A stretch of DNA of 64,000 bases. Origin: Gammaproteobacteria bacterium. Its GTDB lineage: Bacteria; Pseudomonadota; Gammaproteobacteria; Steroidobacterales; JABDKV01. The notes beneath the pieces were generated by a model, which was not told the DNA's origin, did not search any database, and saw only the letters and a program-made list of their open reading frames with translations. The DNA lies in NCBI GenBank assembly GCA_029862165.1, contig JAOTXU010000009.1, positions 65,497-129,496 on the forward strand, in the 5' to 3' direction. The translations under genes were made by a program, and so were the position numbers. Of the stretch, positions 13,135 to 64,000 are shown one piece after another. The first letter of the stretch is position 1, and every line of letters starts with the position of its first letter.

Positions 13135-13149
13135 GTCTATATCGTCCCG

Positions 13150-14346: not shown

Positions 14347-14504
14347 GTGGCGCTCCTGGTAGTGGGTCGAGCAATGATACGCGAGTGCCGGGTTGCCCGG
14401 CACCCCTGGGCGTCGTCGATTTCGTACATCAGCGGCCCGAAAATTTGCCGATAAATACTGGATAGGATGGCGTTACACTACGCCCGGCGAATCAGGAGTG
14501 TCGT

Positions 14505-47305: not shown

Positions 47306-47306
47306 G

Positions 47307-48524
47307 TCAGGCGGCCTGCGGGAACAATTCGCGTAAGGCGCCGGCAAGCCGTTCATAATGCGTTATACCGTTATAAAGCTGTGCCGAGATTCGAATCAGG
47401 CGTTTCGGGTGCGCCGGCCATGGGATCAGGGGGACCTCGATATTCCATCGTTGTAATAATTCCGCCTGTAGCGGGTCGCCATAAAGAGCCGAAGTCGAGG
47501 CCGGGCCGTCGCTGTCAGGCAACGGTAACGATGCCAGTGAGCCCAGCATCTCATCAGGGCAGGGCGCGTCGATTTCCAGCGCCGTACAAAGCAATCTGCG
47601 TCCTGCAATAACCGTCTGGTTGTTGTGTTTGCGAATGGCCGGCCAACCGCCTGGCAAGTATGACTCCAGTGTTTTCAATGCCACTGGCACACTGAGTACT
47701 GCAGTGGGATCCCAGGTGCCGGGCCAGTCAAATTCAACCAGATAGCGCGAGCGGTCGGTGCGCCGGCTATTGGCGCCATGACTAATGACTGGCGGGCGCA
47801 CGTTTTCCTGATGCTCCGGCTTCACGTGCAGAAAACCCGCGCCCTTCGGCGCACAGATCCATTTGTGACAGTTGGCGCTGTAGTAATCGGCGCCCAGCCC
47901 CGTGATATCGACATCAATCATGCCGGGTGCATGAGCGCCATCGACCAGCGTTTGCACACCGCGCTCACGCATCGCGGGAATCAGCGTTTCCAGTGGCATG
48001 ATTAGACCGGTTTGACTGGTGACGTGGTCAAGCAAGGCAATCCGTGTTTGATCGGTGACGCGGGACATGATGACGTCATGTATTTCGCTTAAACCGGTTG
48101 TTGGAAAGGGCACATTCACGGCCAACACTTTCGCTTTATCGCGCTGGGCAACAAATTCCAATACATTACGACATGCGTTGTATTCATGATTGGTAACCAG
48201 CAACTCGTCACCGGGCGAAAATTTCAGAGACTGGACGACAGCATTGACGCCGGTTGTAATGTTGGGCAACCATGCCAAATCCTTTGCTTCGCAATTGACA
48301 AAGGCAGCCAGTTCGGTGCGTGCGTCATCGAGCATCTGCTCCAGATCACGTACGTAGAAAGTAACGGGTTGGCGTTCGAGGCGATCGCGCAGCGATTGCT
48401 GGTATTGCAGTACCTCACGCGGGCAGCTGCCAAAAGAGCCATGGTTGAGAAAAACGACGTCCGGATCGAGCATCCAGTGGTTTGCAAGATTTTCTGTTGC
48501 GGAACTCACGCGCGCATTATCCAC
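47307..48524 (-). CDS. Class V aminotransferase-fold PLP-dependent enzyme (isopenicillin-N-epimerase / cysteine-desulfurase-like)
   Basis: 405 aa. FLNHGSFGSCP N-terminus, and SANCHKW containing the PLP-binding Lys. Confidence 0.8.
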   Translation of the reverse strand: MDNARVSSATENLANHWMLDPDVVFLNHGSFGSCPREVLQYQQSLRDRLERQPVTFYVRDLEQMLDDARTELAAFVNCEAKDLAWLPNITTGVNAVVQSLKFSPGDELLVTNHEYNACRNVLEFVAQRDKAKVLAVNVPFPTTGLSEIHDVIMSRVTDQTRIALLDHVTSQTGLIMPLETLIPAMRERGVQTLVDGAHAPGMIDVDITGLGADYYSANCHKWICAPKGAGFLHVKPEHQENVRPPVISHGANSRRTDRSRYLVEFDWPGTWDPTAVLSVPVALKTLESYLPGGWPAIRKHNNQTVIAGRRLLCTALEIDAPCPDEMLGSLASLPLPDSDGPASTSALYGDPLQAELLQRWNIEVPLIPWPAHPKRLIRISAQLYNGITHYERLAGALRELFPQAA

Positions 48525-48547: not shown

Positions 48548-49768
48548 TCAGCCGCCAAAGAGTGAGCGTACTTTGGCCGGTTTCAGGCCAAATTCTTCCA
48601 GCGTATATCGATGACGACCATGTTTGTCCTGCGGGTTGGCCGACAGAAACAGCCGCATGTTTTGCTCGGCCTCATCTGTCAGGCGCATCATGAGACCCGA
48701 ATAAAGTGTGCGAACCGCTTGAATCGGATCGGCAACCAGCGTCTCGTAGTCCAGATCCACCACGGCGTGACCTGTCCTGAATTGATTTGCGCGTTGCCAG
48801 CCCTCGGCCCACCATTTCACCCAGTAATCTGCGACCGCTGCGATGTCGACTACATCGCTGAATGCTGAACGCAGTATTACGCCATGACTCGCTATCGATG
48901 CCGCGACTTTCAGCGGGTCTCGTTGGGTAAAAACAAACCGTGCATCGGGATAGACCTTTGCCAATGCAGCTAATGTGTACAGATGTGCTGGTGCCTTGAG
49001 ACACCAGCGGCCAGCTTCGCCATGGATCTGCAGGTGCTGTAAAAACACTTTGTGATAATGCATTGCAGCGAGCCCATCCTGCTTGTCCAGCCACTTCTGG
49101 TAGGACGGAACATTAAACGTCGTGTGAAATTCGACACTGGCAAATTCATGTGCGGTTATCGCGATGCATTCCTGTGGCAACTCCGCACCGTTCGGGTGCA
49201 CCGTACGAAAACGTGGTGCTAACCGGTCTACCCATTTCAACATACTGTCGGTGCGCTCTATGCGACGCCGGTCATGGGCTCGTTTTTGGCCGGGCAGCGG
49301 ACACGGCAGCATGACTTCCCAGGTCCACGGCACCCGTATCGCCGGGTCTTGTGCCAACAGGCCGTGCAATAAGGTGCTGCCGGAGCGGGGCAGCCCACTG
49401 ATAATCACCGGTGCCGGGATAGTTTGTTGAGCTATGCGTACATCGCTTGAACGAGCGGCCTGTACCTGCAGCCGGTTAACCAACAGCTGGGTCAGGTGAG
49501 AACGCGCCGACATGCGTCCAACAAAATTTAGTTCTGCCTCATCTTCCAGCGATTCACATAGCCTGAAAAAACCATCACGCCAACTGTCCAGCCCGAAGTC
49601 CGACAGATTCGTTTTTTGTACCGCTTTCTTGGTAAGTCCATCCGGATTCAGCGATCCGCCAAGCCCGGGCAAGTGCCCTGCGAGGTTCGCCATACGCAGA
49701 TAAAACGGACGGTGCTGATATTTGTTGCGGGTCATGCTCGCGTTGGTTAGGGTTGCCAGCGGTCTCAT
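48548..49768 (-). CDS. Sulfotransferase family protein with ~190-aa N-terminal extension
   Basis: PAPS 5'-phosphosulfate-binding loop GLPRSGSTLLHGLL. The start is uncertain (ATG at 49768 or 49735; the longer ORF would overlap the hpnG start). Confidence 0.7.
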   Translation of the reverse strand: MRPLATLTNASMTRNKYQHRPFYLRMANLAGHLPGLGGSLNPDGLTKKAVQKTNLSDFGLDSWRDGFFRLCESLEDEAELNFVGRMSARSHLTQLLVNRLQVQAARSSDVRIAQQTIPAPVIISGLPRSGSTLLHGLLAQDPAIRVPWTWEVMLPCPLPGQKRAHDRRRIERTDSMLKWVDRLAPRFRTVHPNGAELPQECIAITAHEFASVEFHTTFNVPSYQKWLDKQDGLAAMHYHKVFLQHLQIHGEAGRWCLKAPAHLYTLAALAKVYPDARFVFTQRDPLKVAASIASHGVILRSAFSDVVDIAAVADYWVKWWAEGWQRANQFRTGHAVVDLDYETLVADPIQAVRTLYSGLMMRLTDEAEQNMRLFLSANPQDKHGRHRYTLEEFGLKPAKVRSLFGG

Positions 49769-49789: not shown

Positions 49790-50524
49790 ATGACTCTCGA
49801 TAAACTGCGGAATAAGGCGTCCGAACGTGTAGGTGTAATTGCAGCGATGCCGGTCGAGGCCCGAGCGCTGGGTGCGAGCGAACCATTCAATCAAATCCTC
49901 GAACTCACAAGCAACACTTATGCGTACGTGTGCGGCGCCGGGCCGGATAACGCACGTCGTGCTATGCAAGAACTGCTCACTATGAATGTCGCCGGTGTCG
50001 TGAGCTGGGGTACAGCCGGTGGTTTGACACCGAACCTGGTACCCGGTACCGCGTTATTGAGCAAGAAGGTTATATGTGCCGATTCGGCCTATGAGACTGA
50101 TGGCTATTGGGCAGGACGTCTGCGGGATCACTTTAACTCGATTTTGACAATCAATGATGAGGCGATCTACTCGAGCGGCCAGCTTGTTTCCGGTATGGCC
50201 GAGAAAAAAAGATTGGCTAACGAGACCGGCGCGGTCGCCGTTGATATGGAGTCTGGTGCAATTGCAAAGACCGCCGTTGCAGCGGGTGTGCCTTTTGTTT
50301 GCGTGCGCGCAGTCGCCGATCCTTTTGACTTTAGCTTACCCGGCGCACTGAGCAGTGCGCTTGACGAAAAGGGTTTCCCGACAATCAACGGGGCACTGCA
50401 GGGCTTGCTCCGCCGGCCCGCCGATATTGTCCCGATGTTGCGGCTGGCAGTGTATTTCCGCAAGGCGACCAGGACACTGACCGTCATGTCCCGTGTTGCC
50501 GGTCCAGGTCTGCTCGGGCCTTGA
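49790..50524 (+). CDS. hpnG: Hopanoid-associated nucleoside phosphorylase/nucleosidase (HpnG-like)
   Basis: PNP/MTAN family pattern (GVIAAMPVEA..., DMESGAIA). It is the first gene of the hpn operon. Confidence 0.7.
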   Translation: MTLDKLRNKASERVGVIAAMPVEARALGASEPFNQILELTSNTYAYVCGAGPDNARRAMQELLTMNVAGVVSWGTAGGLTPNLVPGTALLSKKVICADSAYETDGYWAGRLRDHFNSILTINDEAIYSSGQLVSGMAEKKRLANETGAVAVDMESGAIAKTAVAAGVPFVCVRAVADPFDFSLPGALSSALDEKGFPTINGALQGLLRRPADIVPMLRLAVYFRKATRTLTVMSRVAGPGLLGP

Positions 50525-53064
50525 ATCACACGGCATATATCGACACGCCGGGGCGGTTGGTCCGTCGTTGGGTCGCGTTAGTCATTCGTTTTGCGCCAAT
50601 AATCGTGGTGCTGGCAGTTTTGTCGATTGCGCCGATGGCGTGGTTTGTTGCGACCCACTTAGGCATCAATACGAGCACGGCTGACATGATTGCCAAACGC
50701 CTGCCATGGCGACAAGCGTTTAGTGATTACCGTGCGGCGTTTCCACAACTAGATCACAACCTCGTTGCGGTGATCGATGCGCCGGACGCAGATCACGCTG
50801 ATGATGCCCGCGATGCGCTCTACATGGCGATGGCAGCGCGTGACGACTTATTCCATGAAGTGTTTGCACCCGGTAGCGACGTGTTTTTTCGTCAAAATGC
50901 ATTCTTATACTTGAGTTCCGAGCAGTTGGCGGACCTGGCTGACCGATTAGCCCAGGTTCAGCCCTTTCTTGCACAATTGGCTGACGACCCGACCACGGCC
51001 GGTTTGTTCAATGCCATTGCTCGCGGATTGGCTGCGGACGGCACCGACATTGATGTCTCGTTGCTGTTGACCAGAATTGCCGACGTCGTCGAAGCGCTCA
51101 ACAACGATAAAGAACACTCGCTTTCATGGCAGGCATTGATGAGCGACGAAGCACCATTACCCGCCCGCCGTGTCGTCGTTTTCCGTCCGAGGATGGATTT
51201 CGCAAGACTGCATCCGGCACAGGATGCTGTGGCAGCAATCCGTGAGCAGCAACAGATTATTTCCGCAGCGCTGCCATTAGACGCAAAGATTCGGCTTACC
51301 GGGCCGGTTGCGTTGGAGTACGAAGAATTGAGCAGTGTTTCGCGTGGCGCCCGGACGGCAGGCTTACTCGCACTGGTCATGGTGCTGGTGATTTTGTACT
51401 TCGCGATGCGTTCTGTATGGCTCGTATGTGCCACATTGTTGACACTCATCACTGGTTTGCTGGCCACAGCTGTTTTTGCAGCGCTCGCGATTGGTTCACT
51501 CAATCTCATCTCCATTGCGTTTACTGTCTTGTACATCGGCTTAGGCGTTGATTTTGCGATTCACTATAGTCTGCGTTTCCGGGAAGCACTGGCCGCAGGG
51601 GCCAGCACAGACGATGCGTTAATAGACAGCGCAGGTGATGTCGGAGCCTCGTTGGTGCTGTGTGCCGTCACGACATCAATCGGATTTTTTGCGTTTTTCC
51701 CGACGACTTTTCGTGGCGTGTCGGAGCTGGGAATTATTTCCGGCACGGGCATGTACATCAGTCTCATCGTGACCCTGACTTTGTTGCCTGCATTGCTCAA
51801 GGTGCTTCCCAAATCACAGAGTTTTGCATCGGCCGTCTCGCTAACGGGCCATATGCAACGCATTAGCCGCAGCCGTTTGCTTTTGCCGGCGGCTGCCGTA
51901 CTTAGCATTGCAGCGCTGGCAGCACTGCCGTACGCAGGCTTTGACAGCGATCCGATCAACCTGCGTGACGCTACCAGTGAATCGGTCGCCACCTATTACG
52001 ATTTGCTGGACGATCCACAATACTCACCGCGCTCATTATCAGTTATCGCTAACGACGCCAGTGATGTGACGCGCATACGTGCCGAGTTAAGCAATCTAGA
52101 CACCGTCAAATCCCTGTCCTCAATCGGCGATTTTGTGCCGACCGAGCAACCCGACAAGTTGGCGTTGATCGAAGAGATTGCATTAATAATGGGGCCGGAT
52201 TTATCGGTTACAGATACTTCTGTCGATACCGGCCGCGATCGTGCAGCGATTTCCAAGCTGTCGGATGTCCTGCAAAACGAGAAGTCGCAGCAAGCCGCTC
52301 GCCTGGCACGGGCGCTGGACGGTTTTCTGCCAAATGCTGCTACCGGGACCGACCCACGGTTAACGCTACTGAACCGAATGCTCGTCGGCACCTTGCCGGG
52401 GCGTTTGTCTGCGCTCAATGATGCATTGAGCGCCGACCGGGTTGCCCTCGAGGATTTGCCGACTGCCTTGCGTGACCGCTGGATTAGCGCGGATGGTCGC
52501 CGCCGTGTCGAGATACAGACCGATGTCGCAAAGACGGAGTTTGTCGATTCAGTACGTGCTGTGATACCTGCTGCGACGGGTCTGCCGGTTTTACAACGTG
52601 AGGGCGGCCGTGCCGTAGTGGGCGCGTTTCGGCAGGCATTCATCACCGCCTTCGTATTGATCTCGCTAATATTGCTTGTGTTGCTGCGCAATGCCCGCCA
52701 GGTTGTCGTCGTTCTGGTGCCATTGATCGCAGCGGGTCTGGGTACGGTCGCAGTCATGGTGTTAGTGGATCAGCCGTTCAATTTCGCCAACGTTATAGCT
52801 TTACCGTTGTTGCTCGGGGTTGGTGTGGACAATGGAATTCACATGGTGCATCGCTGGCGCAGTGGTGCTGTTGACCTGCTGGCCAGCAGTACCTCGCGTG
52901 CGATTTTTTTTAGTGCGCTGACTACCATTGCGAGTTTCGGTAATCTGGCGTTTTCCAGTCACCCGGGCAGCGCGAGTATGGGCAGGGTGCTCACTATCGG
53001 CATGATTCTGACAACGGCATTCAGCGTTTTGCTCATTCCTGCATTGCTGGATCGGCAACGATGA
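50521..53064 (+). CDS. hpnN: Hopanoid-associated RND/MMPL transporter (HpnN-like)
   Basis: 847 aa with two 6-TM bundles and two periplasmic loops (MMPL architecture). TTGA overlap with hpnG. Confidence 0.8.
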   Translation: MNHTAYIDTPGRLVRRWVALVIRFAPIIVVLAVLSIAPMAWFVATHLGINTSTADMIAKRLPWRQAFSDYRAAFPQLDHNLVAVIDAPDADHADDARDALYMAMAARDDLFHEVFAPGSDVFFRQNAFLYLSSEQLADLADRLAQVQPFLAQLADDPTTAGLFNAIARGLAADGTDIDVSLLLTRIADVVEALNNDKEHSLSWQALMSDEAPLPARRVVVFRPRMDFARLHPAQDAVAAIREQQQIISAALPLDAKIRLTGPVALEYEELSSVSRGARTAGLLALVMVLVILYFAMRSVWLVCATLLTLITGLLATAVFAALAIGSLNLISIAFTVLYIGLGVDFAIHYSLRFREALAAGASTDDALIDSAGDVGASLVLCAVTTSIGFFAFFPTTFRGVSELGIISGTGMYISLIVTLTLLPALLKVLPKSQSFASAVSLTGHMQRISRSRLLLPAAAVLSIAALAALPYAGFDSDPINLRDATSESVATYYDLLDDPQYSPRSLSVIANDASDVTRIRAELSNLDTVKSLSSIGDFVPTEQPDKLALIEEIALIMGPDLSVTDTSVDTGRDRAAISKLSDVLQNEKSQQAARLARALDGFLPNAATGTDPRLTLLNRMLVGTLPGRLSALNDALSADRVALEDLPTALRDRWISADGRRRVEIQTDVAKTEFVDSVRAVIPAATGLPVLQREGGRAVVGAFRQAFITAFVLISLILLVLLRNARQVVVVLVPLIAAGLGTVAVMVLVDQPFNFANVIALPLLLGVGVDNGIHMVHRWRSGAVDLLASSTSRAIFFSALTTIASFGNLAFSSHPGSASMGRVLTIGMILTTAFSVLLIPALLDRQR

Positions 53065-54047
53065 GAGCGCTGGTTACCGGCGCGACAGGTTTTATCGGTT
53101 CTGCGGTGGCGCGTGCCCTGATAAATGCCGGCCACCAGGTTCGCGTCTTGGCACGCCCGTCCAGCGATCACGCGAATCTTGCCGGAATAGACGTGGAAAT
53201 CGTTCAGGGCGACCTAATCGATGCCGGCTCGATGTTGCACGCGGTCGTCGGGATGGACATCGTGTTTCATGTCGCAGCCGATTACCGACTTTGGGTGCCC
53301 GACCCGGATGTGCTTTATCAGATCAACGTACATGGCACGCGCTCTTTGCTCGAAGCTGCACAACTTGCTGATGTAAAACGCGTCGTGTACACCAGTAGTG
53401 TTGCGACACTTGGAATCAATGACGATGGCACGTCATCAGACGAAACAACAGCGGTGTCAGTGGCCGACATGATCGGTCACTACAAACGCTCCAAATTTCT
53501 GGCGGAGGAACTTGCGTTTGAGGCTGCGGCCGGTGGACAGGACGTTGTAGTCGTCAATCCCTCTGCGCCGGTCGGGCCAAGGGACATCAAGCCCACACCG
53601 ACAGGGAAAATGATCGTCGATGCCGCCGCGGGTCGAATGCCGGCCTATGTCGATAGTGGATTGAACATCGTACATGTCGATGATGTGGCACAGGGCCATC
53701 TGTTGGCTGCAATGAGTGGTCGTTCCGGCCGCCACTACGTGCTCGGGTGTGAGAACATGACTTTGGCAGAGATTTTCTCCACGGTGGCAGCAATGACCGG
53801 CGTTCGTGCACCAAAAATCAAGTTACCGGTATCTTTGCTATTGCCGGTTGCTCACGTCGCCGAAGCTGTGGCAGGCATAACCCACAAAGCGCCGATGGTG
53901 ACGGTAGATGGCGTAAAGCTCGCCCGCAAGCACATGTATTTTTCCAGTCAACGCGCAATCGATGAATTGGGTTACCAGCCCAGACCAGCTATGGAGGCGT
54001 TAAGAGACGCAGTGGACTGGTTTTCGGAAAACGGATACTTGCAGTGA
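53061..54047 (+). CDS. hpnA: Hopanoid-associated NAD-dependent sugar epimerase (HpnA-like)
   Basis: MRALVTGATGFIGSAVARAL..GH.VRVL.RP.SD..NL.G.DVEIV.GDL and FHVAADYRLW, which is the HpnA-type SDR pattern. ATGA overlap with hpnN. Confidence 0.8.
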   Translation: MRALVTGATGFIGSAVARALINAGHQVRVLARPSSDHANLAGIDVEIVQGDLIDAGSMLHAVVGMDIVFHVAADYRLWVPDPDVLYQINVHGTRSLLEAAQLADVKRVVYTSSVATLGINDDGTSSDETTAVSVADMIGHYKRSKFLAEELAFEAAAGGQDVVVVNPSAPVGPRDIKPTPTGKMIVDAAAGRMPAYVDSGLNIVHVDDVAQGHLLAAMSGRSGRHYVLGCENMTLAEIFSTVAAMTGVRAPKIKLPVSLLLPVAHVAEAVAGITHKAPMVTVDGVKLARKHMYFSSQRAIDELGYQPRPAMEALRDAVDWFSENGYLQ

Positions 54048-55021
54048 AACAAGCGACAGCACTCGCGCATCCCAATATTGCTCTGGTGAAATACTGGGGC
54101 AAACGTGACACTGCATTGAATCTACCCGCGGTGGGTTCGATCTCTATCACGCTCGACACTTTGCATACCAAAACGAAAGTGCGTTTTGATGAAACCCTGG
54201 ACAGTGATGTTTTTTTGCTCGACGGCGCAAGCAACGCCGGTGAGACACGCCGCGTGGTCGATTGTCTGAGCCTGTTGCGCGAGATCGCGGGCGTACAAAC
54301 GCATGCCGAAGTGCGCAGCGAAAACAGTTTTCCTACAGGTTCCGGTCTGGCATCTTCGGCATCGGGCTTTGCTGCCCTGGTTGTGGCTGCCGACGCGGCC
54401 CTGGATCTCGGGCTGGATCAAAGCCGGTTGTCAGAACTGGCACGTCGTGGTTCCGGTTCAGCGGCACGTTCCGTACTCGGTGGTTTTGTCGAGTTGCATC
54501 ATGGCGAGTGGGAAGACGGTGCTGATTGCATCGCTACATCTTTGTTGGATGCTGCTGAGTGGCCACTGGCGGTCACCGTTGGTGTGATATCGCGCAAGGC
54601 AAAAAAAGTCGGCTCGACAGCAGGTATGGAACTGACGCGCGAAACGTCATCCTATTATTCGGCATGGGTGGATGGTGCCGAAGCTGATCTGTTGGCAGCA
54701 AGAGTTGCGATTGTTGAACGCGACTTTCAGAAACTGGCTGACGTAAGTGAGCTGAGTTGCTTGAAGATGCATGCGCTGGCGATGTCGTCACAACCGGGGT
54801 TGATGTACTGGCATGGCGCCACGGTGGAGGGCATCCACCGCATTCGACAGTTGCGTCGTGGCGGACATGCGGTGTTTTTCACCATCGACGCCGGTCCGCA
54901 ACTCAAAGTGATTTCAACGCCAGAGGCCGTGGCAACAGTGACCGACGCCTTAAGCGATATTTCGGGCGTGCAGGACGTTTTGCTTACCGGTTTGGGCGAG
55001 GGAGCACGAGTCGTTGACTAG
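54044..55021 (+). CDS. mvaD: Diphosphomevalonate decarboxylase
   Basis: NIALVKYWGKRD, SFPTGSGLASSASGFAAL and ARRGSGSAARS motifs. GTGA overlap with hpnA. Confidence 0.9.
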   Translation: MKQATALAHPNIALVKYWGKRDTALNLPAVGSISITLDTLHTKTKVRFDETLDSDVFLLDGASNAGETRRVVDCLSLLREIAGVQTHAEVRSENSFPTGSGLASSASGFAALVVAADAALDLGLDQSRLSELARRGSGSAARSVLGGFVELHHGEWEDGADCIATSLLDAAEWPLAVTVGVISRKAKKVGSTAGMELTRETSSYYSAWVDGAEADLLAARVAIVERDFQKLADVSELSCLKMHALAMSSQPGLMYWHGATVEGIHRIRQLRRGGHAVFFTIDAGPQLKVISTPEAVATVTDALSDISGVQDVLLTGLGEGARVVD

Positions 55022-55979
55022 CACGGCAACAGCACCCGGGAAGCTAATCCTGATTGGCGAGTTTGCCGTCTTAGAAGGCGCGCCCGCCATCGTGATGGCA
55101 ATCGACAGGCGGGCACAGGTGCGCGTTACATCGGCGCAAACAAACCTGGTGACGGCGCCAGAGATATGTGAGCGGGAAGTAAGCTTTAGTGTTGACGCGG
55201 ATCGCCGCGTTAGCTGGCTCGGCGTTGATCCTTCCCAGAGCGTTCGACTGGAAATACTGGCGCAGGTAATTGCGAGATATTGGTCCGGCACACCTGTGCA
55301 CATTGAAACCGATACCGCGGCATTTTTTGAAGACGGTATCAAAATGGGTTTTGGCTCCAGCGCGGCGCTGACAGTCGCGGCGTCCGCTGCACTGCGTCGC
55401 AAAGTTCCGGATTTGGCAGAGCTGATCGAAACACACAAGGTCGCGCAGGGCGGGCGTGGTAGCGGATTCGATATCGCGGCGAGTTTGAACGGTGGTGTCA
55501 TTAACTTCAGGTCACAACCGCCCGAGGCAACTCCGCTGAGTTTGCCGGATGGTTTGCATATGCGCTGTGTCTGGACTGGCCATGCCGCATCGACGTCGGC
55601 GTTTCTCCGTGGGCTGGATGCACTCGGCGAGCGACGCAACGCGATTGACGAGCTGGCCGGTAGCGCAAGATCCGCCGTTAGCGGCCTCGACAACAGTCCT
55701 GCGTCCTGGGTGCAGGCTGTACAGAATTATTCGAAGGCTTTGAAACGATTCGCGGCACAGACATCACTGCCGATTTTTTCCGGTGGCCACACCGAGATTG
55801 CGGAGGTCGCAAATGCTAACAATGTGGCTTATAAGCCCAGCGGTGCCGGGGGCGGAGATCTGGGTATTGCAGTCAGCATGGATGCCGCACCTCTGGAGTC
55901 GTTTAGCCGAGCGCTGAGCGCGACCGGCGTGCGGATCGTGCGACTGGTTGTGGACAAAAAGGGCCTAATCTTGAGTTAG
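55014..55979 (+). CDS. Phosphomevalonate kinase (GHMP family)
   Basis: TTG start overlapping the mvaD stop by 8 nt. APGKLILIGEFAVLEG, GFGSSAALTVA, GSGFDIAAS and KPSGAGGGDLGIA motifs. Confidence 0.8.
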   Translation: MTSTATAPGKLILIGEFAVLEGAPAIVMAIDRRAQVRVTSAQTNLVTAPEICEREVSFSVDADRRVSWLGVDPSQSVRLEILAQVIARYWSGTPVHIETDTAAFFEDGIKMGFGSSAALTVAASAALRRKVPDLAELIETHKVAQGGRGSGFDIAASLNGGVINFRSQPPEATPLSLPDGLHMRCVWTGHAASTSAFLRGLDALGERRNAIDELAGSARSAVSGLDNSPASWVQAVQNYSKALKRFAAQTSLPIFSGGHTEIAEVANANNVAYKPSGAGGGDLGIAVSMDAAPLESFSRALSATGVRIVRLVVDKKGLILS

Positions 55980-56012
55980 TTGAGGCCCAGGACTTTAAGC
56001 TATTATTGGCCG

Positions 56013-57134
56013 ATGTACGACGCTCAGACAGCCCGGCAAGACACCCCCGATACCACCCCGGTTGCCGTTGCCGCCGGTCCGCCGTCGCCCGAAGATATCG
56101 CTTTGCAAGATGAGCTGCTGCCCGGCGTTTCCAGAACTTTTGCATTGACCATCCCGCAGTTGCCGGAACCGTTGCGCGTGCCGGTGACCAATGCATATCT
56201 GTTATGCCGCATTGCCGACACTATCGAAGATGAACCAACTCTAACTCCGGCCGAGAAACGACAATTTCACAAGCAGTTTGTCGCCGCTGTACAGGGCAAG
56301 ACTTCGGCGACAGAATTTGCCAAATCACTGCACCCGCGTCTGTCTAAGACTACGCTTGCAGCGGAACGCGAACTCATATTGCATTCGCAGCAGGTGTTGC
56401 ACACGACGCGCGCATTACCGGCACGACAACGCGATTCGCTGGAACGTTGTATTTCGATCATGTGTGACGGCATGTCGCAGTTTCAGAATACGGAAGGACT
56501 CAGTGGTCTGGAAGACCTGCATGAGATGGAACGCTATTGTTATTTTGTTGCCGGTGTCGTGGGCGAAATGCTTACTGAATTGTTTTGTGATTATTCACCG
56601 GATATTGAGGCAACCCGCCCCGAGTTAATGAATCTCTCGGTTGCGTTTGGTCAGGGTCTGCAAATGACCAACATCCTCAAGGATATATGGGAGGACCGGA
56701 CTCGCGATGCGTGCTGGTTACCTCGCGATGTGTTTGAAGAGGTAGGTTGCGATCTCGGCAGCCTGGACCCAGAGTCGCGCAAGGGGTTTGGTGAAGCCCT
56801 CAATCAACTCATCGGAGTGGCGCATTTGCGATTGCGTAGCGCGCTTTCCTATACGCAGTTGATTCCCTCTGCCGAGACCGGGATACGCCGTTTTTGTTTG
56901 TGGGCTATAGGCATGGCCGTACTTACATTGCGCAAGATTCACCAGAACCCGGATTTTGTCGCCGGTGGCGAGGTCAAAATCTCCCGTCGCGCGGTTAAGT
57001 CAACTATCCTGGCTGCCAACCTCACAGCGCCCAGTAACGCAGCACTAAAAATGGCTTTCGATCTGGTCGCCCGCGGTCTACCGTTGGCCGACGGGGAGCA
57101 GTATCAGGCGATGAGCAACAGCCCCAACGGCTAG
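56013..57134 (+). CDS. sqs: Squalene synthase (farnesyl-diphosphate farnesyltransferase), single-enzyme Sqs type
   Basis: SRTFALTI, CRIADTIEDE (DTxED motif), YCYFVAGVVGEML and LQMTNILKDIWED. The start is ATG at 56013, or TTG at 55980 abutting the upstream stop. Confidence 0.8.
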   Translation: MYDAQTARQDTPDTTPVAVAAGPPSPEDIALQDELLPGVSRTFALTIPQLPEPLRVPVTNAYLLCRIADTIEDEPTLTPAEKRQFHKQFVAAVQGKTSATEFAKSLHPRLSKTTLAAERELILHSQQVLHTTRALPARQRDSLERCISIMCDGMSQFQNTEGLSGLEDLHEMERYCYFVAGVVGEMLTELFCDYSPDIEATRPELMNLSVAFGQGLQMTNILKDIWEDRTRDACWLPRDVFEEVGCDLGSLDPESRKGFGEALNQLIGVAHLRLRSALSYTQLIPSAETGIRRFCLWAIGMAVLTLRKIHQNPDFVAGGEVKISRRAVKSTILAANLTAPSNAALKMAFDLVARGLPLADGEQYQAMSNSPNG

Positions 57135-57225
57135 AAAGCAATATTGCCGGGATGCATCACAGGATCGGAATCGTCATAATAGCCAGCCGCCCGGCCGGCT
57201 AGTCCCCAAACTCAGGTACAGCGTA

Positions 57226-59478
57226 ATGCACACATCACGCATCCCACGGTTCTACAAAATGTCAGTCGCTGAACGCGTTCGTGCCGCACGCGATTTGGGT
57301 GTCCTCAATCGCGAGGACTATCGCGCGTTGACCAGTGGCGATCACATGCTAACCGTCAACCGCGCCGACAAGATGATCGAAAACGTCATCGGTGTGATGG
57401 GATTGCCGGTGGGTTTGGGTCTCAATTTTGTTATTAATGAAAACGAGTACGTAATACCGCTGGTAGTGGAAGAACCCTCAATCGTTGCCGCGCTGAGTTC
57501 TGCTGCCAAGCTCATCAGAAAATCGGGCGGCTTTGGTGTCGAAAGCACCGATTCGGTGCTCATCGGGCAGATTCAGGTGGTCGATTTGCGGCACACGACG
57601 CGTGCACGACAGGCCTTATTGGATAACAAACAAGAAATAATCAATCTGGCAAACAGCCTGCACCCGAACATGGTGGCGCGTGGCGGCGGCGCCAAAGACA
57701 TGGAAGTGTTAATACATGCCGGCGCCAGTGAACAAGTCGGTGATATGTTGGTCGCGCACCTGTTGGTGGACACACGCGATGCAATGGGTGCGAATCTTGT
57801 CAACACAATGTGCGAGGGCGTAGCGCCATTGGTTGAAAAAATCACCGGCGGAAAGGTTTTTTTGCGCATATTGTCGAATCTGGCCGACCGATCGCTCGTA
57901 CGCGCTCACTGCAGCATTCCGGTCGATAACCTCGGTGGCAAAGGCTACGACGGCGAAGAAGTGCGTGACGGAATTGTACTGGCCAGCGAATTTGCTGCGG
58001 CTGACCCTTACCGGGCGGCGACACATAACAAAGGCGTTATGAATGGTATCGATGCCGTCGCCCTGGCGACCGGCAACGATTGGCGTGCTATTGAGGCCGG
58101 TGCGCATGCTTATGCAGCTCGTGGTACGCATTACACGTCGCTGAGCCGTTGGACACGTGGCCCGGATGGCGCGTTGATCGGTGATCTCGAAATGCCGCTC
58201 AAGGTTGGAACAGTCGGTGGCCCCCTGGAGTCCAATCCGACTGTGGCGATGAATATGCGTATGCTGGACGTAAAAAGCTCACGCGAGCTGGGTGAGGTCA
58301 TGGGTGCTGTTGGGCTGGCACAGAATTTCTCTGCACTACGTGCACTGGCGACTGAGGGCATACAAACGGGCCACATGACACTGCACGCCCGTAGTGTTGT
58401 GACGGCGGCCGAAGCGCCACCGGAAGTATTCGATACCGTGGTCGAGCGATTGATCGAAAGTGGAACGATCAAGATCTGGAAAGCACGGGAGTTGGTAACC
58501 GAAGTCGTTGAACAAAGCTCGCCGGGAGGCACATCGGGTCTGAAGCCGTTAGACGCAGAAGGCGCGAAGGCCGGCAACGGAAAGATTATTCTGTTGGGCG
58601 AACACTCCGTTGTTTATGGTCGTCATGCCATCGCCGCACCAGTAGAACTGGCGGTACAGGCGCGTGTGCATGATTGCGAAACGGGTGTCCATCTGGTCGT
58701 GCCGCGCTGGGGCGTGGAATACCGGATGCATGAGCAAGCCGCCAAACGCCGTTCGTTTGAAATTTCTGCGGGTTTGATACTGGAGAAACTGGGATTGACC
58801 GGGCGGGCCATGCGTATCGAGGTCTATCCAAACGTCCCGCGCGCAATGGGTCTGGGTGGCTCCGCAGCGACCGCCGTGGCGATAATCCGGGCGTTGGATG
58901 ATCACTTCGAACTGGGGCTGGACGAAAATGAAATCAACCAGCTGGCTTACGAGAGTGAAAAGGTAGCTCACGGTAACCCGTCCGGTATTGATAACACGGT
59001 GGCGACCTTTGGCAAGACATTGTTGTTCAAGCGCGGCGATCCACCGCTGATGCATGAGCTGCGCTTTCCACAAAAGATACCTGTCGTCATCGCCATGAGC
59101 GGCGTCGAGAGTCTCACAGCCAAGATGGTCGCGCGTGTGCGTGCCGCATGGGAGAAAAACAAAACCTTGTACGAGCGCATCTTCGATGAGATCGATGCGC
59201 TAGCGTTACATGCGGTTGAAGCGCTGAAGGAAAACAATATCGGCCAGCTGGGCGAGTTGATGAATATCAATCAGGGTCTGCTAAATGCCCTACAGGTCTC
59301 CTGTTGGGAAGTGGAGGAACTAATTCAAATCGCCCGTGAGAACGGCGCATCGGGTGCGAAGCTGACCGGTGGCGGTGGCGGCGGTTCCATCATCGCGATT
59401 TGCCCGGAAGATCCGCAACGCGTGGTCAAAGCTATCCGCGATGCCGGTTACCAGGCCATGGAGGTCGAGATTGGCTGA
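57226..59478 (+). CDS. Bifunctional fusion: class II HMG-CoA reductase (N-terminal ~430 aa) :: mevalonate kinase (C-terminal ~310 aa)
   Basis: N-terminal part has ENVIG..LP.G, PLVVEEPSIVAA and DAMGANLVNT. A Ser/Gly/Pro linker ...EQSSPGGTSGLKPLDAEGAKA follows. The C-terminal part has GKIILLGEHSVVYG, GLGGSAATAVA and KLTGGGGGGSIIA. It is one uninterrupted 750-codon frame. Confidence 0.85.
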   Translation: MHTSRIPRFYKMSVAERVRAARDLGVLNREDYRALTSGDHMLTVNRADKMIENVIGVMGLPVGLGLNFVINENEYVIPLVVEEPSIVAALSSAAKLIRKSGGFGVESTDSVLIGQIQVVDLRHTTRARQALLDNKQEIINLANSLHPNMVARGGGAKDMEVLIHAGASEQVGDMLVAHLLVDTRDAMGANLVNTMCEGVAPLVEKITGGKVFLRILSNLADRSLVRAHCSIPVDNLGGKGYDGEEVRDGIVLASEFAAADPYRAATHNKGVMNGIDAVALATGNDWRAIEAGAHAYAARGTHYTSLSRWTRGPDGALIGDLEMPLKVGTVGGPLESNPTVAMNMRMLDVKSSRELGEVMGAVGLAQNFSALRALATEGIQTGHMTLHARSVVTAAEAPPEVFDTVVERLIESGTIKIWKARELVTEVVEQSSPGGTSGLKPLDAEGAKAGNGKIILLGEHSVVYGRHAIAAPVELAVQARVHDCETGVHLVVPRWGVEYRMHEQAAKRRSFEISAGLILEKLGLTGRAMRIEVYPNVPRAMGLGGSAATAVAIIRALDDHFELGLDENEINQLAYESEKVAHGNPSGIDNTVATFGKTLLFKRGDPPLMHELRFPQKIPVVIAMSGVESLTAKMVARVRAAWEKNKTLYERIFDEIDALALHAVEALKENNIGQLGELMNINQGLLNALQVSCWEVEELIQIARENGASGAKLTGGGGGGSIIAICPEDPQRVVKAIRDAGYQAMEVEIG

Positions 59479-59500
59479 TCACGGTGGACTGCGTTCTGCT

Positions 59501-60058
59501 GTGGTGTCCAGTGAGAGTGAGCGGCTGGTACTGGTCGACGGGCAGGATCAGGAAATAGGCTTCGAATCCAAAGGAACTGTGCATGACGGCACAGGCCTTT
59601 TGCATCGCGCCTTTTCGCTTTTCATTTTCAATAAACAAGGCGAATTGCTAATGCAGCAACGCAGCGCCGCCAAGCGCCTATGGCCGATGTTTTGGTCCAA
59701 CAGTTGCTGCAGCCATCCACGCGAAGGCGAGGACATCGATGATGCAACCCATCGCAGACTGCGCGAAGAACTGGGCATGCGAAGCGACTTGCAGTTTTTG
59801 TACCGCTTTCGTTATCACGCGCAGTTTGGTGAGCTCGGTGCCGAACACGAGTTTTGCTGGGTCTACATTGGTCGTAGTGACGACATGATTCGGGTCAATC
59901 GCAACGAAATTGCCGCCTGGCGCTGGATCGCCATTGAAGATCTGGAGCGTGAGATGGGCGAACAGCCGCACGGTTTTACGCCATGGTTTAGAATGGAGTG
60001 GGAACGTATCCGCGGTGAATTCGCCGCTGAACTGGCAACATTAGCGGGCAATATATGA
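59501..60058 (+). CDS. idi: Isopentenyl-diphosphate delta-isomerase, type 1 (Nudix)
   Basis: LHRAFSLFIFN..GELLMQQRS..K..WP..WSNSCCSHP..GE. There is no in-frame ATG after the upstream stop, so the start is GTG at 59501 or TTG at 59471. Confidence 0.85.
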   Translation: MVSSESERLVLVDGQDQEIGFESKGTVHDGTGLLHRAFSLFIFNKQGELLMQQRSAAKRLWPMFWSNSCCSHPREGEDIDDATHRRLREELGMRSDLQFLYRFRYHAQFGELGAEHEFCWVYIGRSDDMIRVNRNEIAAWRWIAIEDLEREMGEQPHGFTPWFRMEWERIRGEFAAELATLAGNI

Positions 60059-61179
60059 GCATACCTCTCAAACAACAATACACGGTAGGCAGCTACATCC
60101 TGCGTCAGAAATTGAAGAGGCGTGAGCGTTATCCATTGGTATTGATGCTCGAACCCTTATTCCAATGCAATCTGGCCTGCGCCGGTTGCGGCAAGATCGA
60201 TTACGAAAAAGATATCCTGGCACAACGCGTGTCGGTACATGATGCATTGCGTGCGGTGGACGACTGCGGGGCACCGATAGTCTCGATCGCCGGTGGCGAA
60301 CCATTAATCCACAAAGAGTTACCGCAGATCGTCGCAGGCATAATTGAGCGCAAGAAGTATGTTTATCTTTGCACCAACGCTATTCTGTTGCGTAAACGCA
60401 TGGATGACTATCAGCCGTCACCCTATCTGACTTTCTCGATACATCTCGATGGCAACCGCAAACGTCATGACGAGTCGGTTTGCCAGGTCGGCGTCTTCGA
60501 CAAAGCGGTGCTGGCTATCGAGCAGGCCAAAGAGCGCGGTTTCCGTGTCACAGTGAACTGCACGTTGTTTAACAGCGAGGATCCACAGGACGTAGCCGAG
60601 TTTTTTGACCACGCCATGGGAATGGGTGTTGAGGGTGTGACGGTTTCGCCCGGTTACAGTTATCAGCATGCACCACGCCAGGATGTCTTCCTGCAACGCA
60701 AGCAGAGCAAAGAACTGTTTCGCGAAATTTTCCGGCGTGGCAAGGAAGGTAAACGAGACTGGCGTATCAACCAGTCCAGCCTGTTCCTCGATTTTCTTGC
60801 AGGCAACCAGACATATCATTGCACGCCGTGGAGTAATCCCACCTACAACGTATTTGGCTGGCAGAAACCGTGTTATTTGCTAGTCGATGAGGGTTACGTC
60901 GACAGTTATGCGGGGCTGATGGAAAATACACCATGGGATGAGTACGGCACCGGTAACAATCCGAAGTGCGATAACTGCATGGCGCACTGTGGTTATGAGG
61001 GAACGGCCGTTAACGACACGTTTGCGAATCCACTGAAGGCGCTGAAAGTTGCGCTACGCGGACCACGCACCGACGGACCGATGGCACCGGAAGTGCCGAT
61101 TACCTACACTTCGCGGCCAGTACCTGCAGTCGGCATCCCGGTCGATCAAATCGGTCGCAGCAACGGCGCCTCCCAGTAA
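60055..61179 (+). CDS. hpnH: Hopanoid biosynthesis radical SAM protein HpnH (adenosylhopane synthase)
   Basis: YPLVLMLEPLFQCNLACAGCGKIDY radical-SAM cluster motif with an HpnH-type N-terminus. ATGA overlap with idi. Confidence 0.9.
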   Translation: MSIPLKQQYTVGSYILRQKLKRRERYPLVLMLEPLFQCNLACAGCGKIDYEKDILAQRVSVHDALRAVDDCGAPIVSIAGGEPLIHKELPQIVAGIIERKKYVYLCTNAILLRKRMDDYQPSPYLTFSIHLDGNRKRHDESVCQVGVFDKAVLAIEQAKERGFRVTVNCTLFNSEDPQDVAEFFDHAMGMGVEGVTVSPGYSYQHAPRQDVFLQRKQSKELFREIFRRGKEGKRDWRINQSSLFLDFLAGNQTYHCTPWSNPTYNVFGWQKPCYLLVDEGYVDSYAGLMENTPWDEYGTGNNPKCDNCMAHCGYEGTAVNDTFANPLKALKVALRGPRTDGPMAPEVPITYTSRPVPAVGIPVDQIGRSNGASQ

Positions 61180-63788: not shown

Positions 63789-63801
63789 GGGTACGAGTCT
63801 C

Positions 63802-64000
63802 ATGCACAAACTGAATGCCGTAATACTCGTGGCTGTAGCAATACTCGCAACCGCTTGTAGTGAGCCACCTCCACCGGGCGAACCGATCGTCAGACCGGTG
63901 CGTTATCAAAGAGTCGACCGGCAGGGCTCCGAGGAACTACGTGTCTTCTCGGGTACCGCACATGCTGCGCTGGAGACCGACCTGAGTTTCAAAGTGCAGG
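63802..64000 (+). CDS. Efflux periplasmic adaptor (membrane fusion) lipoprotein, N-terminal fragment (3' end outside window)
   Basis: ATG lies 14 nt after the TolC-like stop. Lipobox LATAC. The call rests mainly on position next to the outer membrane factor. Confidence 0.5.
   Translation, partial: MHKLNAVILVAVAILATACSEPPPPGEPIVRPVRYQRVDRQGSEELRVFSGTAHAALETDLSFKVQ

Follow-up and report, generated by a model that had tools for sequence, protein, structure and literature searches.

Mevalonate pathway genes among hopanoid genes in a gammaproteobacterial locus: a probable rearranged copy of a widespread supercluster

Genes of the mevalonate (MVA) pathway that lie among hopanoid (hpn) genes raise the question of whether they supply that cluster alone or the cell at large. 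We examined such a locus in a 64,000-nucleotide stretch of gammaproteobacterial DNA (the window). Nine open reading frames on the + strand between positions 49790 and 61179 were all present, intact and closely packed, and a motif check found the catalytic motifs unbroken. The same gene order was seen in two independent ENA assemblies and in one NCBI MAG, which excludes an assembly artefact as the source of the order in the window. The base composition of the region was not unusual. The genes are given below with their model scores, and cut-offs where these were passed.

49790..50524, + strand: hpnG, hopanoid-associated purine nucleoside phosphorylase family (TIGR03468, 192.3 vs 187.1; PNP_UDP_1)
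50521..53064, + strand: hpnN, MMPL/RND-type hopanoid transporter (TIGR03480, 892 vs 752; Pfam MMPL)
53061..54047, + strand: hpnA, hopanoid-associated SDR/epimerase-like protein (TIGR03466, 494 vs 368)
54044..55021, + strand: mvaD, diphosphomevalonate decarboxylase (TIGR01240, 288 vs 171; MVD-like_N, MDD_C; GLASSA motif)
55014..55979, + strand: divergent GHMP kinase, most likely phosphomevalonate kinase (pmk)
56013..57134, + strand: sqs, single-enzyme eukaryote-type squalene synthase (Pfam SQS_PSY, 192 bits)
57226..59478, + strand: hmgr::mk, class II HMG-CoA reductase fused to mevalonate kinase (TIGR00532, 419 vs 260; TIGR00549, 247 vs 163)
59441..60058, + strand: idi, type 1 (Nudix) isopentenyl-diphosphate isomerase (NF002995, 171 vs 127; TIGR02150, 161 vs 106)
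60055..61179, + strand: hpnH, radical SAM adenosylhopane synthase (TIGR03470, 537 vs 225; Radical_SAM and DUF3463)

The nine identities put forward in the original prediction hold, with seven proteins passing curated cut-offs and the phosphomevalonate kinase (PMK) and squalene synthase (SQS) supported by Pfam, PDB, motifs and synteny. HpnG, HpnN, HpnA and HpnH all scored above their TIGR cut-offs, HpnG marginally (by 5 bits); HpnN was below the stricter NF052374 model (676 vs 1100). Synteny of hpnG is kept in 42 loci, HpnA is 57-63% identical to that of other nested clusters, and HpnH contains the motif C38-x3-C-x2-C. Among the MVA and squalene proteins, the decarboxylase (MDD), the reductase-kinase fusion (HMGR::MK) and the isomerase (IDI) passed their curated cut-offs, but PMK and SQS fell below their NCBIfam cut-offs (TIGR01220, 91.5 vs 165.7, and TIGR01559, 112 vs 287, being the best matches); these shortfalls and the narrow margin of HpnG count against the reading preferred below. 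The best PDB match of the putative PMK was 3k17 (Lin0012; E 2.5e-12), and its position between mvaD and hmgr::mk is kept in 77 loci. SQS matched the squalene synthases 7wgh, 3wca and 3asx best and carries the Asp-rich motifs DTIED and DIWED. In HMGR::MK, the HMGR domain spans residues 1 to ~425 (1qax, E 1e-117) and the MK domain ~437-750 (2hfs, E 3e-44), and the motifs VEEPS, HNKG, GNDWRA and LHAR were found. Conserved copies of this fusion were found in more than 546 genomic stretches and in at least 8000 protein clusters.

We compared species-level relatives with the HMGR::MK fusion that were informative on both sides (57 loci). The MVA block has hpn genes on both sides in 37 gammaproteobacterial loci and stands alone, without hpn genes, in 20; hpn genes on one side only were seen in none of the 57. 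The arrangement is thus the majority state, and not peculiar to this genome. The commonest order is FPPS(-), then sqs-shc-hpnG-hpnA-mvaD-pmk-hmgr::mk-idi-hpnH-hpnB, with the squalene-hopene cyclase gene (shc) flanked by sqs and hpnG in 37 loci and FPP synthase (FPPS) upstream and divergent in 35. In relatives hpnH is followed by hpnB, by hpnM and by a conserved gene for a hydrolase-like protein of ~346 aa. In a neighbour-joining tree most of the deep branches carried the nested state, and two-sided nesting occurs in Rhodanobacteraceae, Wenzhouxiangellaceae, Arenicellales, Natronospirales, Lysobacteraceae and Litchfieldella at 30-70% protein identity. Close relatives (87-89% identity) retain the order of the window, which represents a less common subtype found in six further lineages as well; this subtype carries hpnN and hpnM together with a divergently transcribed Stf-like sulfotransferase gene, and lacks shc.

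Comparison of these loci suggests that the locus is a copy, with rearrangements, of a gammaproteobacterial supercluster that is widespread and has the lower mevalonate pathway inside a hopanoid cluster; to this full reading we give a probability of about 0.62. The supercluster is present in public genomes, namely Rhodanobacteraceae, Wenzhouxiangellaceae and Natronospirales MAGs, Litchfieldella qijiaojingensis KCTC 22228, GCA_013003425.1 and GCA_013043785.1. These share with the window the HMGR::MK fusion and mvaD-pmk-hmgr::mk-idi between hpnG/hpnA and hpnH. Most have FPPS(-) and sqs-shc upstream and hpnB downstream, without hpnN and the sulfotransferase, whereas in the window lineage sqs now lies within the MVA block, between pmk and hmgr::mk, shc and FPPS are gone, and a TolC-MFP-RND set is inserted. 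We found no publication on the nested arrangement, and the database records, among them an identical HMGR::MK protein deposited in an NCBI MAG, bear automatic names only; the supercluster is apparently not yet described.

Does the locus form a single transcript? The start/stop overlaps reported at 50521, 53061, 54044, 55014 and 60055 were all found. The gap at 57135-57225, initially thought to be the only real one, is accompanied by a second of 33 nt after pmk, the sqs start being ATG 56013 by comparison with close relatives. The idi start lies at 59441 or 59471, overlapping hmgr::mk by 38 or 8 nt; a start at 59369 was rejected. The hpnA/mvaD and idi/hpnH overlaps in the window rest on taking the first in-frame start codon as the gene start. 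Of two close relatives with gene calls, locus L088 keeps both; in L090 the first persists (1 nt), while hpnH is preceded by a gap of 56 nt. The larger gap of the window contains one further feature.

57150..57184, + strand: conserved non-coding blocks in the 91-nt sqs-hmgr::mk gap (alignment of relatives)

Here GGATGCATC includes an 8-bp palindrome and AATCGTCATAATAGCC a -10-like CATAAT (57175-57180). The blocks do not vary between the window, L088, L090 and L002, although the mean column identity of the alignment is 67%, and are a candidate internal promoter/operator. The gap showed no stable RNA fold (z = 0) and was not flagged by a consensus promoter scan, and the palindrome was not enriched in the window. 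Of the single coupled transcript originally proposed, the tight packing stands, but the claim is weakened because of the conserved -10-like motif. Such a promoter would also fit a neighbourhood without function, in which MVA and hpn genes became adjacent by rearrangement or co-transfer, are separately regulated and share only IPP, as would the coming and going of sqs, shc, FPPS, hpnN and the RND set across lineages. However, two-sided nesting across six divergent groups, the absence of one-sided cases, and the overlaps joining MVA to hpn genes in the window, of which one close relative keeps both and another keeps one, make this highly improbable.

The absence of HMG-CoA synthase (HMGS), thiolase and shc noted earlier was confirmed: none was found in the window or in the adjoining 7.6 kb on its upstream and 10 kb on its downstream side (~82 kb in all), and FPPS was likewise missing there, which counts against the supercluster reading. 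An "acetyl-CoA-to-squalene line" was therefore an overstatement, since without thiolase, HMGS and FPPS the route lacks two separate segments, which must be encoded at other sites. Of the two explanations first offered for the missing genes, reliance on unlinked ones is favoured, and we assume that shc, FPPS, HMGS and thiolase lie elsewhere in the genome; an unlinked shc is more probable than a product other than a classical hopanoid. FPP is required for quinones and undecaprenyl phosphate, and FPPS is thus expected to be indispensable; that it, too, is gone from the cluster in the window lineage makes a move of cluster genes to other sites plausible.

Judging by the protein families, HMG-CoA would be supplied by unlinked enzymes and reduced to mevalonate by the HMGR domain of the fusion, and its MK domain would phosphorylate the product. 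PMK and MDD would then yield IPP, and IDI would yield DMAPP; FPP from an unlinked synthase would be converted to squalene by the single-enzyme SQS and, by an unlinked cyclase, to diploptene. HpnH would attach an adenosyl side chain. The HpnG family converts adenosylhopane to ribosylhopane and adenine, and HpnG here would strip adenine to give ribosylhopane, toward bacteriohopanepolyols. HpnA may perform a tailoring step of unspecified kind, and HpnN with HpnM, encoded just past the window, would carry the lipid to the outer membrane.

A general supply of IPP to the cell, encoded beside its largest isoprenoid sink and regulated together with it, is a likelier role for the MVA block than that of a private second pathway. 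The alternative, that the MEP route serves housekeeping and the nested genes feed only squalene and hopanoids from one translationally coupled transcript, draws on the physical nesting of MVA and squalene genes between side-chain, tailoring and export genes, which was borne out, and on the start/stop overlaps. Such dedicated supply has a precedent in Streptomyces, where, in a normally MEP-using group, MVA blocks are joined to terpenoid antibiotic clusters; as in the window, the block adjoins genes for one terpenoid end product. A survey that also discusses dual-pathway Streptomyces (PMC13001223, Table S1) scored, among relatives, Rhodanobacter and Marinobacter psychrophilus with both pathways, but Wenzhouxiangella, Woeseia and Dyella caseinilytica as MVA-only, so that the block may be the cell's sole IPP source. 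A dedicated line would moreover be broken at three points (HMGS/thiolase, FPPS and shc), the 20 of 57 loci in which the block stands alone fit a general role, and the conserved -10-like motif precedes hmgr::mk; we consider it rather unlikely.

Further genes flank the nine.

46280..47356, - strand: GNAT-type acetyltransferase (Acetyltransf_6, FemAB-like; Pfam PF13480, 103.8 bits)
47307..48524, - strand: class V PLP aminotransferase/desulfurase-like protein, divergent from the cluster (Pfam Aminotran_5, 101 bits)
48548..49768, - strand: Stf-like (Sulfotransfer_3) sulfotransferase, divergent from hpnG (Pfam PF13469, 136 bits)
61464..63788, + strand: TolC-family outer-membrane channel with a long N-terminal extension (Pfam OEP, 148 bits)

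The sulfotransferase, which likely starts at ATG 49768 or 49735, gave full-length PDB matches to 2z6v (E 1e-43) and 2zq5 (E 1e-40), and homologues with 43-71% identity adjoin the same cluster type in L088/89, L090, L053, L092, L093 and L094. Its aminotransferase-like neighbour scored weakly with cysteine-desulfurase and PvdN models and has homologues (73-74% identity) that adjoin the sulfotransferase gene in L088/L089 and in L090. The acetyltransferase, last of the divergent trio, had no NCBIfam or PDB match; the loci of relatives stop short of it, and its belonging to the system is uncertain. The TolC-family protein was below the TIGR01844 cut-off (149 vs 225), and an MFP gene begins at 63802 and continues past the window end. 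In L081/L082 the downstream genes are MFP, an AcrB-type RND and then HpnM (TIGR03481, 168 vs 160). This TolC-MFP-RND set between hpnH and hpnM is found in the window lineage only; L088-L090 lack it, with hpnM immediately 3' of hpnH.

No shc was seen in any of the seven sulfotransferase-type lineages within the visible flank (up to 10 kb each side), although most other nested clusters have it, and this could mean something besides relocation. The shc-less subtype may make another envelope lipid, derived from squalene or a polyprenyl compound and perhaps sulfated, with homologues of HpnH and HpnG that use a non-hopene substrate; the consistent presence of the sulfotransferase in this subtype speaks for such a lipid. 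Wenzhouxiangella, of a related gammaproteobacterial family, has the same HMGR::MK-containing MVA block with a squalene synthase, read as making squalene itself as a membrane lipid for impermeability (PMC7691419); unlike the window, cultured Wenzhouxiangella loci carry the block without hpn genes. Against a non-hopanoid product, HpnH, HpnG, HpnA, HpnN and HpnM all pass hopanoid-specific models. HpnH is 68-75% identical to HpnH of shc-containing clusters, a conservation equal to that of the MVA enzymes, which argues for the same substrate; no HpnH substrate other than diploptene is known to have been reported. The absence of shc was, furthermore, judged from ~20 kb per relative, and the loss of FPPS from the window-lineage cluster makes local absence weak evidence for genomic absence. 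We regard a non-hopanoid product as quite improbable.

The supercluster can be compared with further known systems. Canonical hpn clusters (Rhodopseudomonas palustris, Zymomonas, Burkholderia) likewise group HpnG, HpnH, HpnA, HpnN and HpnM members on one strand, but use HpnC/D/E for squalene, contain shc and lie in genomes on the MEP route; the window instead has a single eukaryote-type SQS and five embedded MVA-route enzyme activities, and lacks shc. Actinomycete MVA cassettes contain HMGS and a type 2 IDI, encode HMGR and MK in two genes, and serve secondary metabolites; the window differs from those of Streptomyces in its lack of HMGS, type 1 IDI, fused class II HMGR and membrane-lipid sink. 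Gram-positive coccal MVA operons have a class II HMGR and the GHMP trio MK/PMK/MDD, and Enterococcus MvaE is a thiolase::HMGR fusion. The window resembles these in its class II HMGR, its trio and the fusion of HMGR to a pathway neighbour, although the partner is MK (the next step) and not thiolase (two steps before), mvaS is unlinked and IDI is type 1. PDB entry 7m1z, deposited as an acetyl-CoA C-acetyltransferase, matches the HMGR domain of the window. Figure colour codes in surveys of hpn clusters in Alphaproteobacteria (PMC12583986) and Acidobacteria (PMC5462960) mark isoprenoid-precursor and FPP-synthesis genes in or beside hpn islands, so that precursor genes in such clusters are not new in principle.

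All nine plus-strand open reading frames proposed for the cluster (49790-61179) were recovered, and curated cut-offs supported most of the names given to them; the exceptions were phosphomevalonate kinase (PMK) and squalene synthase (SQS), both of which fell below the NCBIfam equivalog cut-offs.

Genes of the cluster, in order, and of its flanks, with model scores against cut-offs
hpnG, + strand: HpnG, nucleosidase/phosphorylase; TIGR03468, 192.3 against 187.1, a marginal pass by 5 bits, synteny kept
hpnN, + strand: HpnN, hopanoid transporter; TIGR03480, 892 against 752; stricter model NF052374 failed, 676 against 1100
hpnA, + strand: HpnA; curated model, 494 against 368 bits
mvaD, + strand: diphosphomevalonate decarboxylase; TIGR01240, 288 against 171
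pmk, + strand: candidate PMK, a GHMP kinase; PMK models are the best matches, 91.5 against 165.7
sqs, + strand: putative SQS; Pfam SQS_PSY, 192 bits; no NCBIfam equivalog passed
hmgr::mk, + strand: fused HMG-CoA reductase and mevalonate kinase (HMGR::MK), 750 aa; class II HMGR, 419 against 260, and MK, 247 against 163, both domains passing equivalog cut-offs
idi, + strand: IPP isomerase (IDI), type 1; TIGR02150, 161 against 106
hpnH, + strand: HpnH, adenosylhopane synthase; TIGR03470, 537 against 225; DUF3463; C38-x3-C-x2-C intact
hpnM, about 4.2 kb past the window end: HpnM; TIGR03481, 168 against 160
48548-49768, divergent from the cluster: Stf-like sulfotransferase; full-length PDB matches 2z6v and 2zq5
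Upstream and divergent, with the sulfotransferase: class V aminotransferase-like protein, FemAB-like GNAT, tRNA-Gly

The HMGR domain of the fusion aligned over its full length with Pseudomonas mevalonii-type enzymes, and its motifs VEEPS, HNKG, GNDWRA and LHAR are intact. The product of mvaD did not reach the phosphomevalonate-decarboxylase model (187 against 475). Lin0012 (3k17) was the closest solved structure to the candidate PMK, whose position is kept in 77 loci. Both Asp-rich motifs (DTIED and DIWED) are present in the putative SQS, and its best NCBIfam and PDB matches were squalene synthases, the solved ones being of the eukaryote type; this single SQS_PSY protein is found in the cluster instead of HpnC, HpnD and HpnE, none of which is encoded there. 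Among the matches to HMGR::MK in the protein-cluster search, one of 1131 aa on a 220-kb contig (P0010) shared 70% identity with it and may be a triple PMK::HMGR::MK fusion, or else have a mis-called start.

The overlaps of stop and start codons reported for the cluster are present, with six of the eight junctions overlapping by 4-38 nt when starts are taken as the first in-frame start codon, and they are mostly kept in two close relatives (L088 and L090). Contrary to the claim that only one real gap exists, comparison with relatives placed the sqs start at ATG 56013, thereby opening a second gap of 33 nt after pmk, so that gaps of 33 nt and 91 nt flank sqs. The same comparison moved the idi start to 59441 or 59471, with an overlap of 38 or 8 nt. 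A consensus scan found terminator- and promoter-like sites to be no commoner than in shuffled sequences, and none lay within the gaps. However, in the 91-nt gap before hmgr::mk, an alignment of four sequences contained two clade-invariant blocks, GGATGCATC (57150-57158) and AATCGYCATAATRGCC (57169-57184), in surroundings where mean column identity was just 67%. A -10-like CATAAT lies 46 nt ahead of the hmgr::mk ATG, with a palindrome, GATGCATC, at the -35 position; the palindrome was not enriched within the window. On the strength of these four sequences, the blocks could plausibly form an internal promoter or operator. The single, translationally coupled transcript originally proposed is favoured by same-strand packing with overlaps and weakened by these candidate promoter blocks; one long transcript by itself and one supplemented by an internal start are equally likely. 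A structured RNA in the gap was rejected, as the gap folded no better than shuffled sequence, and an Rfam scan of the whole window returned tRNA-Gly alone.

How widespread the arrangement is was apparent from a scan of one genome per species, in which at least 546 stretches encoded the HMGR::MK fusion. We mapped the window proteins onto the best 80 of these loci and then identified the flanking genes. Nearly all 80 were from Gammaproteobacteria, and they included Rhodanobacteraceae, Wenzhouxiangellaceae, Arenicellales, Natronospirales, Lysobacteraceae, Litchfieldella and Marinobacter. The canonical order across relatives is FPP synthase (FPPS) on the minus strand, followed by sqs-shc-hpnG-hpnA-mvaD-pmk-hmgr::mk-idi-hpnH-hpnB, where shc encodes squalene-hopene cyclase. 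Where both sides of the mevalonate (MVA) block were informative (57 loci), hpn genes lay upstream and hpnH downstream in 37, hpn genes were missing from both sides in 20, and no locus had them on one side only. In a rough neighbour-joining tree of the fusion protein, the nested state occupied most deep branches, and the hpn-free state was limited to sub-clades such as cultured Wenzhouxiangella. A cultured carrier of the nested cluster is Litchfieldella qijiaojingensis KCTC 22228 (L012), which possesses shc, hpnN and hpnM; all nested Rhodanobacter loci came from metagenome-assembled genomes. The two-sided counts and the tree therefore indicate that nesting is old, conserved and common, and is no peculiarity of the window genome. 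The window likewise carries the fusion within mvaD-pmk-hmgr::mk-idi with hpn genes on both sides, the sole difference in the MVA block being that pmk and hmgr::mk are separated by an inserted sqs. Two ENA assemblies and the relatives show the same gene order, which rules out an assembly chimera. The cluster was also rejected as a compositional island, its GC content (0.54-0.57) being that of the rest of the window. An HMGR::MK protein identical to that of the window is already in NCBI, from a metagenome-assembled genome labelled Gammaproteobacteria bacterium, named only "hydroxymethylglutaryl-CoA reductase, degradative".

The genes absent from the locus bear directly on what it can make. HMG-CoA synthase (HMGS), thiolase and shc had been reported missing from the window, and their absence held, also across an additional 17.6 kb around it. 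Pfam models were run on the main window ORFs of at least 150 aa, excluding those inside longer assigned ORFs; none of the scanned ORFs matched thiolase or HMGS families, most belonging to other families and a few being without a match. Recurrent flank ORFs of 80 relative loci were clustered, and the families sampled from up to 10 kb per side, a sampling that was not exhaustive, contained ispB, histidine kinases, CMAS and glycosyltransferases but neither HMGS nor thiolase. By tblastn, which for shc used two verified cyclases with Pfam SQHop_cyclase_N and _C domains, shc, FPPS and ispB were found neither in the window nor in its extensions (L081-L087) or close relatives. HMGS/thiolase, the polyprenyl synthase and SHC are not encoded in the window or in the additional 17.6 kb, so that in place of the acetyl-CoA-to-squalene supply line that had been proposed the locus encodes three stretches, HMG-CoA to IPP/DMAPP, FPP to squalene, and diploptene onwards, with three external links.

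The lack of shc may indicate either that the cyclase is encoded elsewhere in the genome or that the product is not a classical hopanoid. Genes marking a hopanoid cluster that are present at the locus are those for HpnH, HpnG, squalene synthesis, and HpnN, HpnA and HpnM; tblastn detected no shc in the window, 7.6 kb upstream and 10 kb downstream. Among relatives, FPPS was present in 35 loci and shc in 37, and neither was present in the window or in close relatives L088-L090. FPPS is expected to be indispensable, because quinones and undecaprenyl phosphate need FPP, and its loss from the locus suggests that genes left the cluster yet stayed in the genome. In view of this departure, and of the 68-75% identity of HpnH to that of shc-linked clusters, the economical reading is that shc would be encoded elsewhere in the genome of the window lineage, which is uncultured and represented by metagenome contigs only. 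Divergence between the shc-less cluster lineages and any relative that bears SHC is about 60% throughout.

At 85-89% identity, the window groups with its close relatives (L001/L090, L002 and L088/L089) in a deep clade of their own, in which the order is a minus-strand aminotransferase and sulfotransferase followed by hpnG-hpnN-hpnA-mvaD-pmk-sqs-hmgr::mk-idi-hpnH-hpnM and a hydrolase-like gene. Unlike the canonical supercluster, clusters of this clade carry sqs inside the MVA block with a gap on either side, lack shc and FPPS, and include hpnN and hpnM; the window lineage alone has, in addition, a TolC-MFP-RND set between hpnH and hpnM. Four lineages further away, L053, L092 (1.38-Mb contig), L093 (2.3-Mb contig) and L094 (562-kb contig), likewise have a sulfotransferase homologue (43-55% identity) next to a cluster of this kind, and FPPS adjoins the sulfotransferase in L092, L093 and L053. 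In none of these sulfotransferase-type clusters did the flanks that could be seen (up to 10 kb per side) contain shc. The structures matched by the window sulfotransferase, 2z6v and 2zq5, are mycobacterial Stf-family lipid or glycolipid sulfotransferases. It is possible, though on present sequence evidence unlikely (a probability of roughly 0.2), that the window represents a distinct subtype, defined by the Stf-like sulfotransferase, hpnN plus hpnM and the lack of shc, and here also by the class V aminotransferase, the FemAB-like GNAT and the TolC-MFP-RND set, which would make and export an undescribed envelope lipid. Such a lipid might be an extended hopanoid bearing sulfate or some other decoration, or else a squalene derivative that is not cyclised, and it would be built wholly from mevalonate carbon where the alternative MEP route has been replaced. 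This shc-less, sulfotransferase-linked subtype is the part of the locus most likely to yield something new, and gives a tangible starting point in the search for what may be new lipid chemistry.

With respect to the MVA block itself, a 2026 survey scored MVA as the only route in Wenzhouxiangella, Woeseia and Dyella caseinilytica, and as occurring alongside MEP in Rhodanobacter and Marinobacter psychrophilus (PMC13001223 Table S1). The MVA-only scoring of relatives, together with the 20 hpn-free MVA loci, better supports a block that would serve as the main, possibly the only, IPP pathway of the cell, co-located with its largest sink, than a private line for hopanoids. The original observation was upheld, and its interpretation only in part. 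Conserved nesting suggests joint inheritance, and perhaps joint regulation, of an isoprenoid pathway and its main lipid sink, and provides a clue to how MVA replaced or joined MEP in these lineages. Hopanes are major geochemical biomarkers. Should mevalonate rather than MEP supply the IPP for hopanoids across a wide range of soil, saline and sediment Gammaproteobacteria, this would bear on hopane source assignment and also on how carbon isotopes in hopanoids are interpreted.

The components come from known families, those of the hpn genes, of SQS and of the classical MVA pathway, and MVA cassettes are known to be attached to terpenoid clusters in Streptomyces. Precursor genes of the MEP/FPP route in or beside hpn islands are drawn in surveys of Alphaproteobacteria (PMC12583986) and Acidobacteria (PMC5462960), and SQS plus MVA was noted in Wenzhouxiangella (PMC7691419). 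A literature search found no description of MVA genes nested in a hopanoid cluster, of a natural HMGR::MK fusion, of a sulfotransferase-linked, shc-less subtype or of hopanoids in Rhodanobacter, Woeseia or Wenzhouxiangella; it yielded just the Wenzhouxiangella note on SQS with MVA and the survey table on MVA and MEP. The arrangement is widespread in public data, automatically annotated and uncharacterised; it is solid and conserved, makes biological sense and has some relevance to geochemistry and engineering. For isoprenoid engineering, the natural fusion and the compact set of genes from HMG-CoA to squalene offer ready-made parts.

Several features of the surroundings were also recorded. After the last complete window gene downstream, which encodes a TolC-like channel, the contigs of the two ENA assemblies encode in turn an MFP, an AcrB-type RND pump, HpnM, a hydrolase-like protein of about 346 aa that has no family assignment, and a metallo-beta-lactamase-fold protein. 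The channel, in the region from 61464-64000 into L081:11410-17909 that also holds the MFP and RND genes, has an N-terminal extension of about 320 aa; in L088-L090, which share 87-89% identity, hpnM lies directly 3' of hpnH without this insertion. The 5' end of hpnM differs by about 135 nt between the assemblies (L081:18297-18881 and L082:18171-19016), so that the called protein has 194 aa in L081 and 281 aa in L082, and identity across the stretch is 94%; strain variation, or else a small indel or repeat, could account for the difference. The 346-aa protein, with weak alpha/beta-hydrolase-like matches (L081:18937-19977, about 5 kb past the window end), recurs with 35-40% identity after hpnH, hpnB or hpnM in shc-containing and shc-less nested clusters alike (L003:16226-17263, L004, L008, L019, L014, L015, L088, L090 and L094), and may be a further member of the hopanoid cluster. 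A protein of the Pribosyltran family (about 175 aa), which looks like a putative adenine phosphoribosyltransferase, lies beside the cluster in L088:2074-2601, where it overlaps the hpnG start, and in L003:2034-2552, L073, L014 and L053:1-246. An adenine-salvage link is conceivable because HpnG releases adenine, and the position may equally well be inherited synteny with obg. A few kb downstream in L088:17945-21402 and L090:17340-20815 are an AsmA-like protein and two SRPBCC (Polyketide_cyc2) proteins, of families associated with lipid transport and lipid binding.

The remaining window is ordinary chromosome (ftsYEX-rpoH, coaBC, dut, mutM, thiG and trmB), and no integrase was found next to tRNA-Gly among the Pfam-scanned ORFs. 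One ORF (26109-27275) joins an N-terminal fatty-acid desaturase domain to a C-terminal ISL3 transposase fragment, suggesting a desaturase gene broken by an IS element. The minus-strand region 10885-14403 encodes a protein of 749 aa in which E1 alpha and beta dehydrogenase domains are fused, next to an acyl-CoA dehydrogenase; should the two act on branched-chain keto acids and isovaleryl-CoA, the cluster could draw the HMG-CoA it needs from leucine catabolism.
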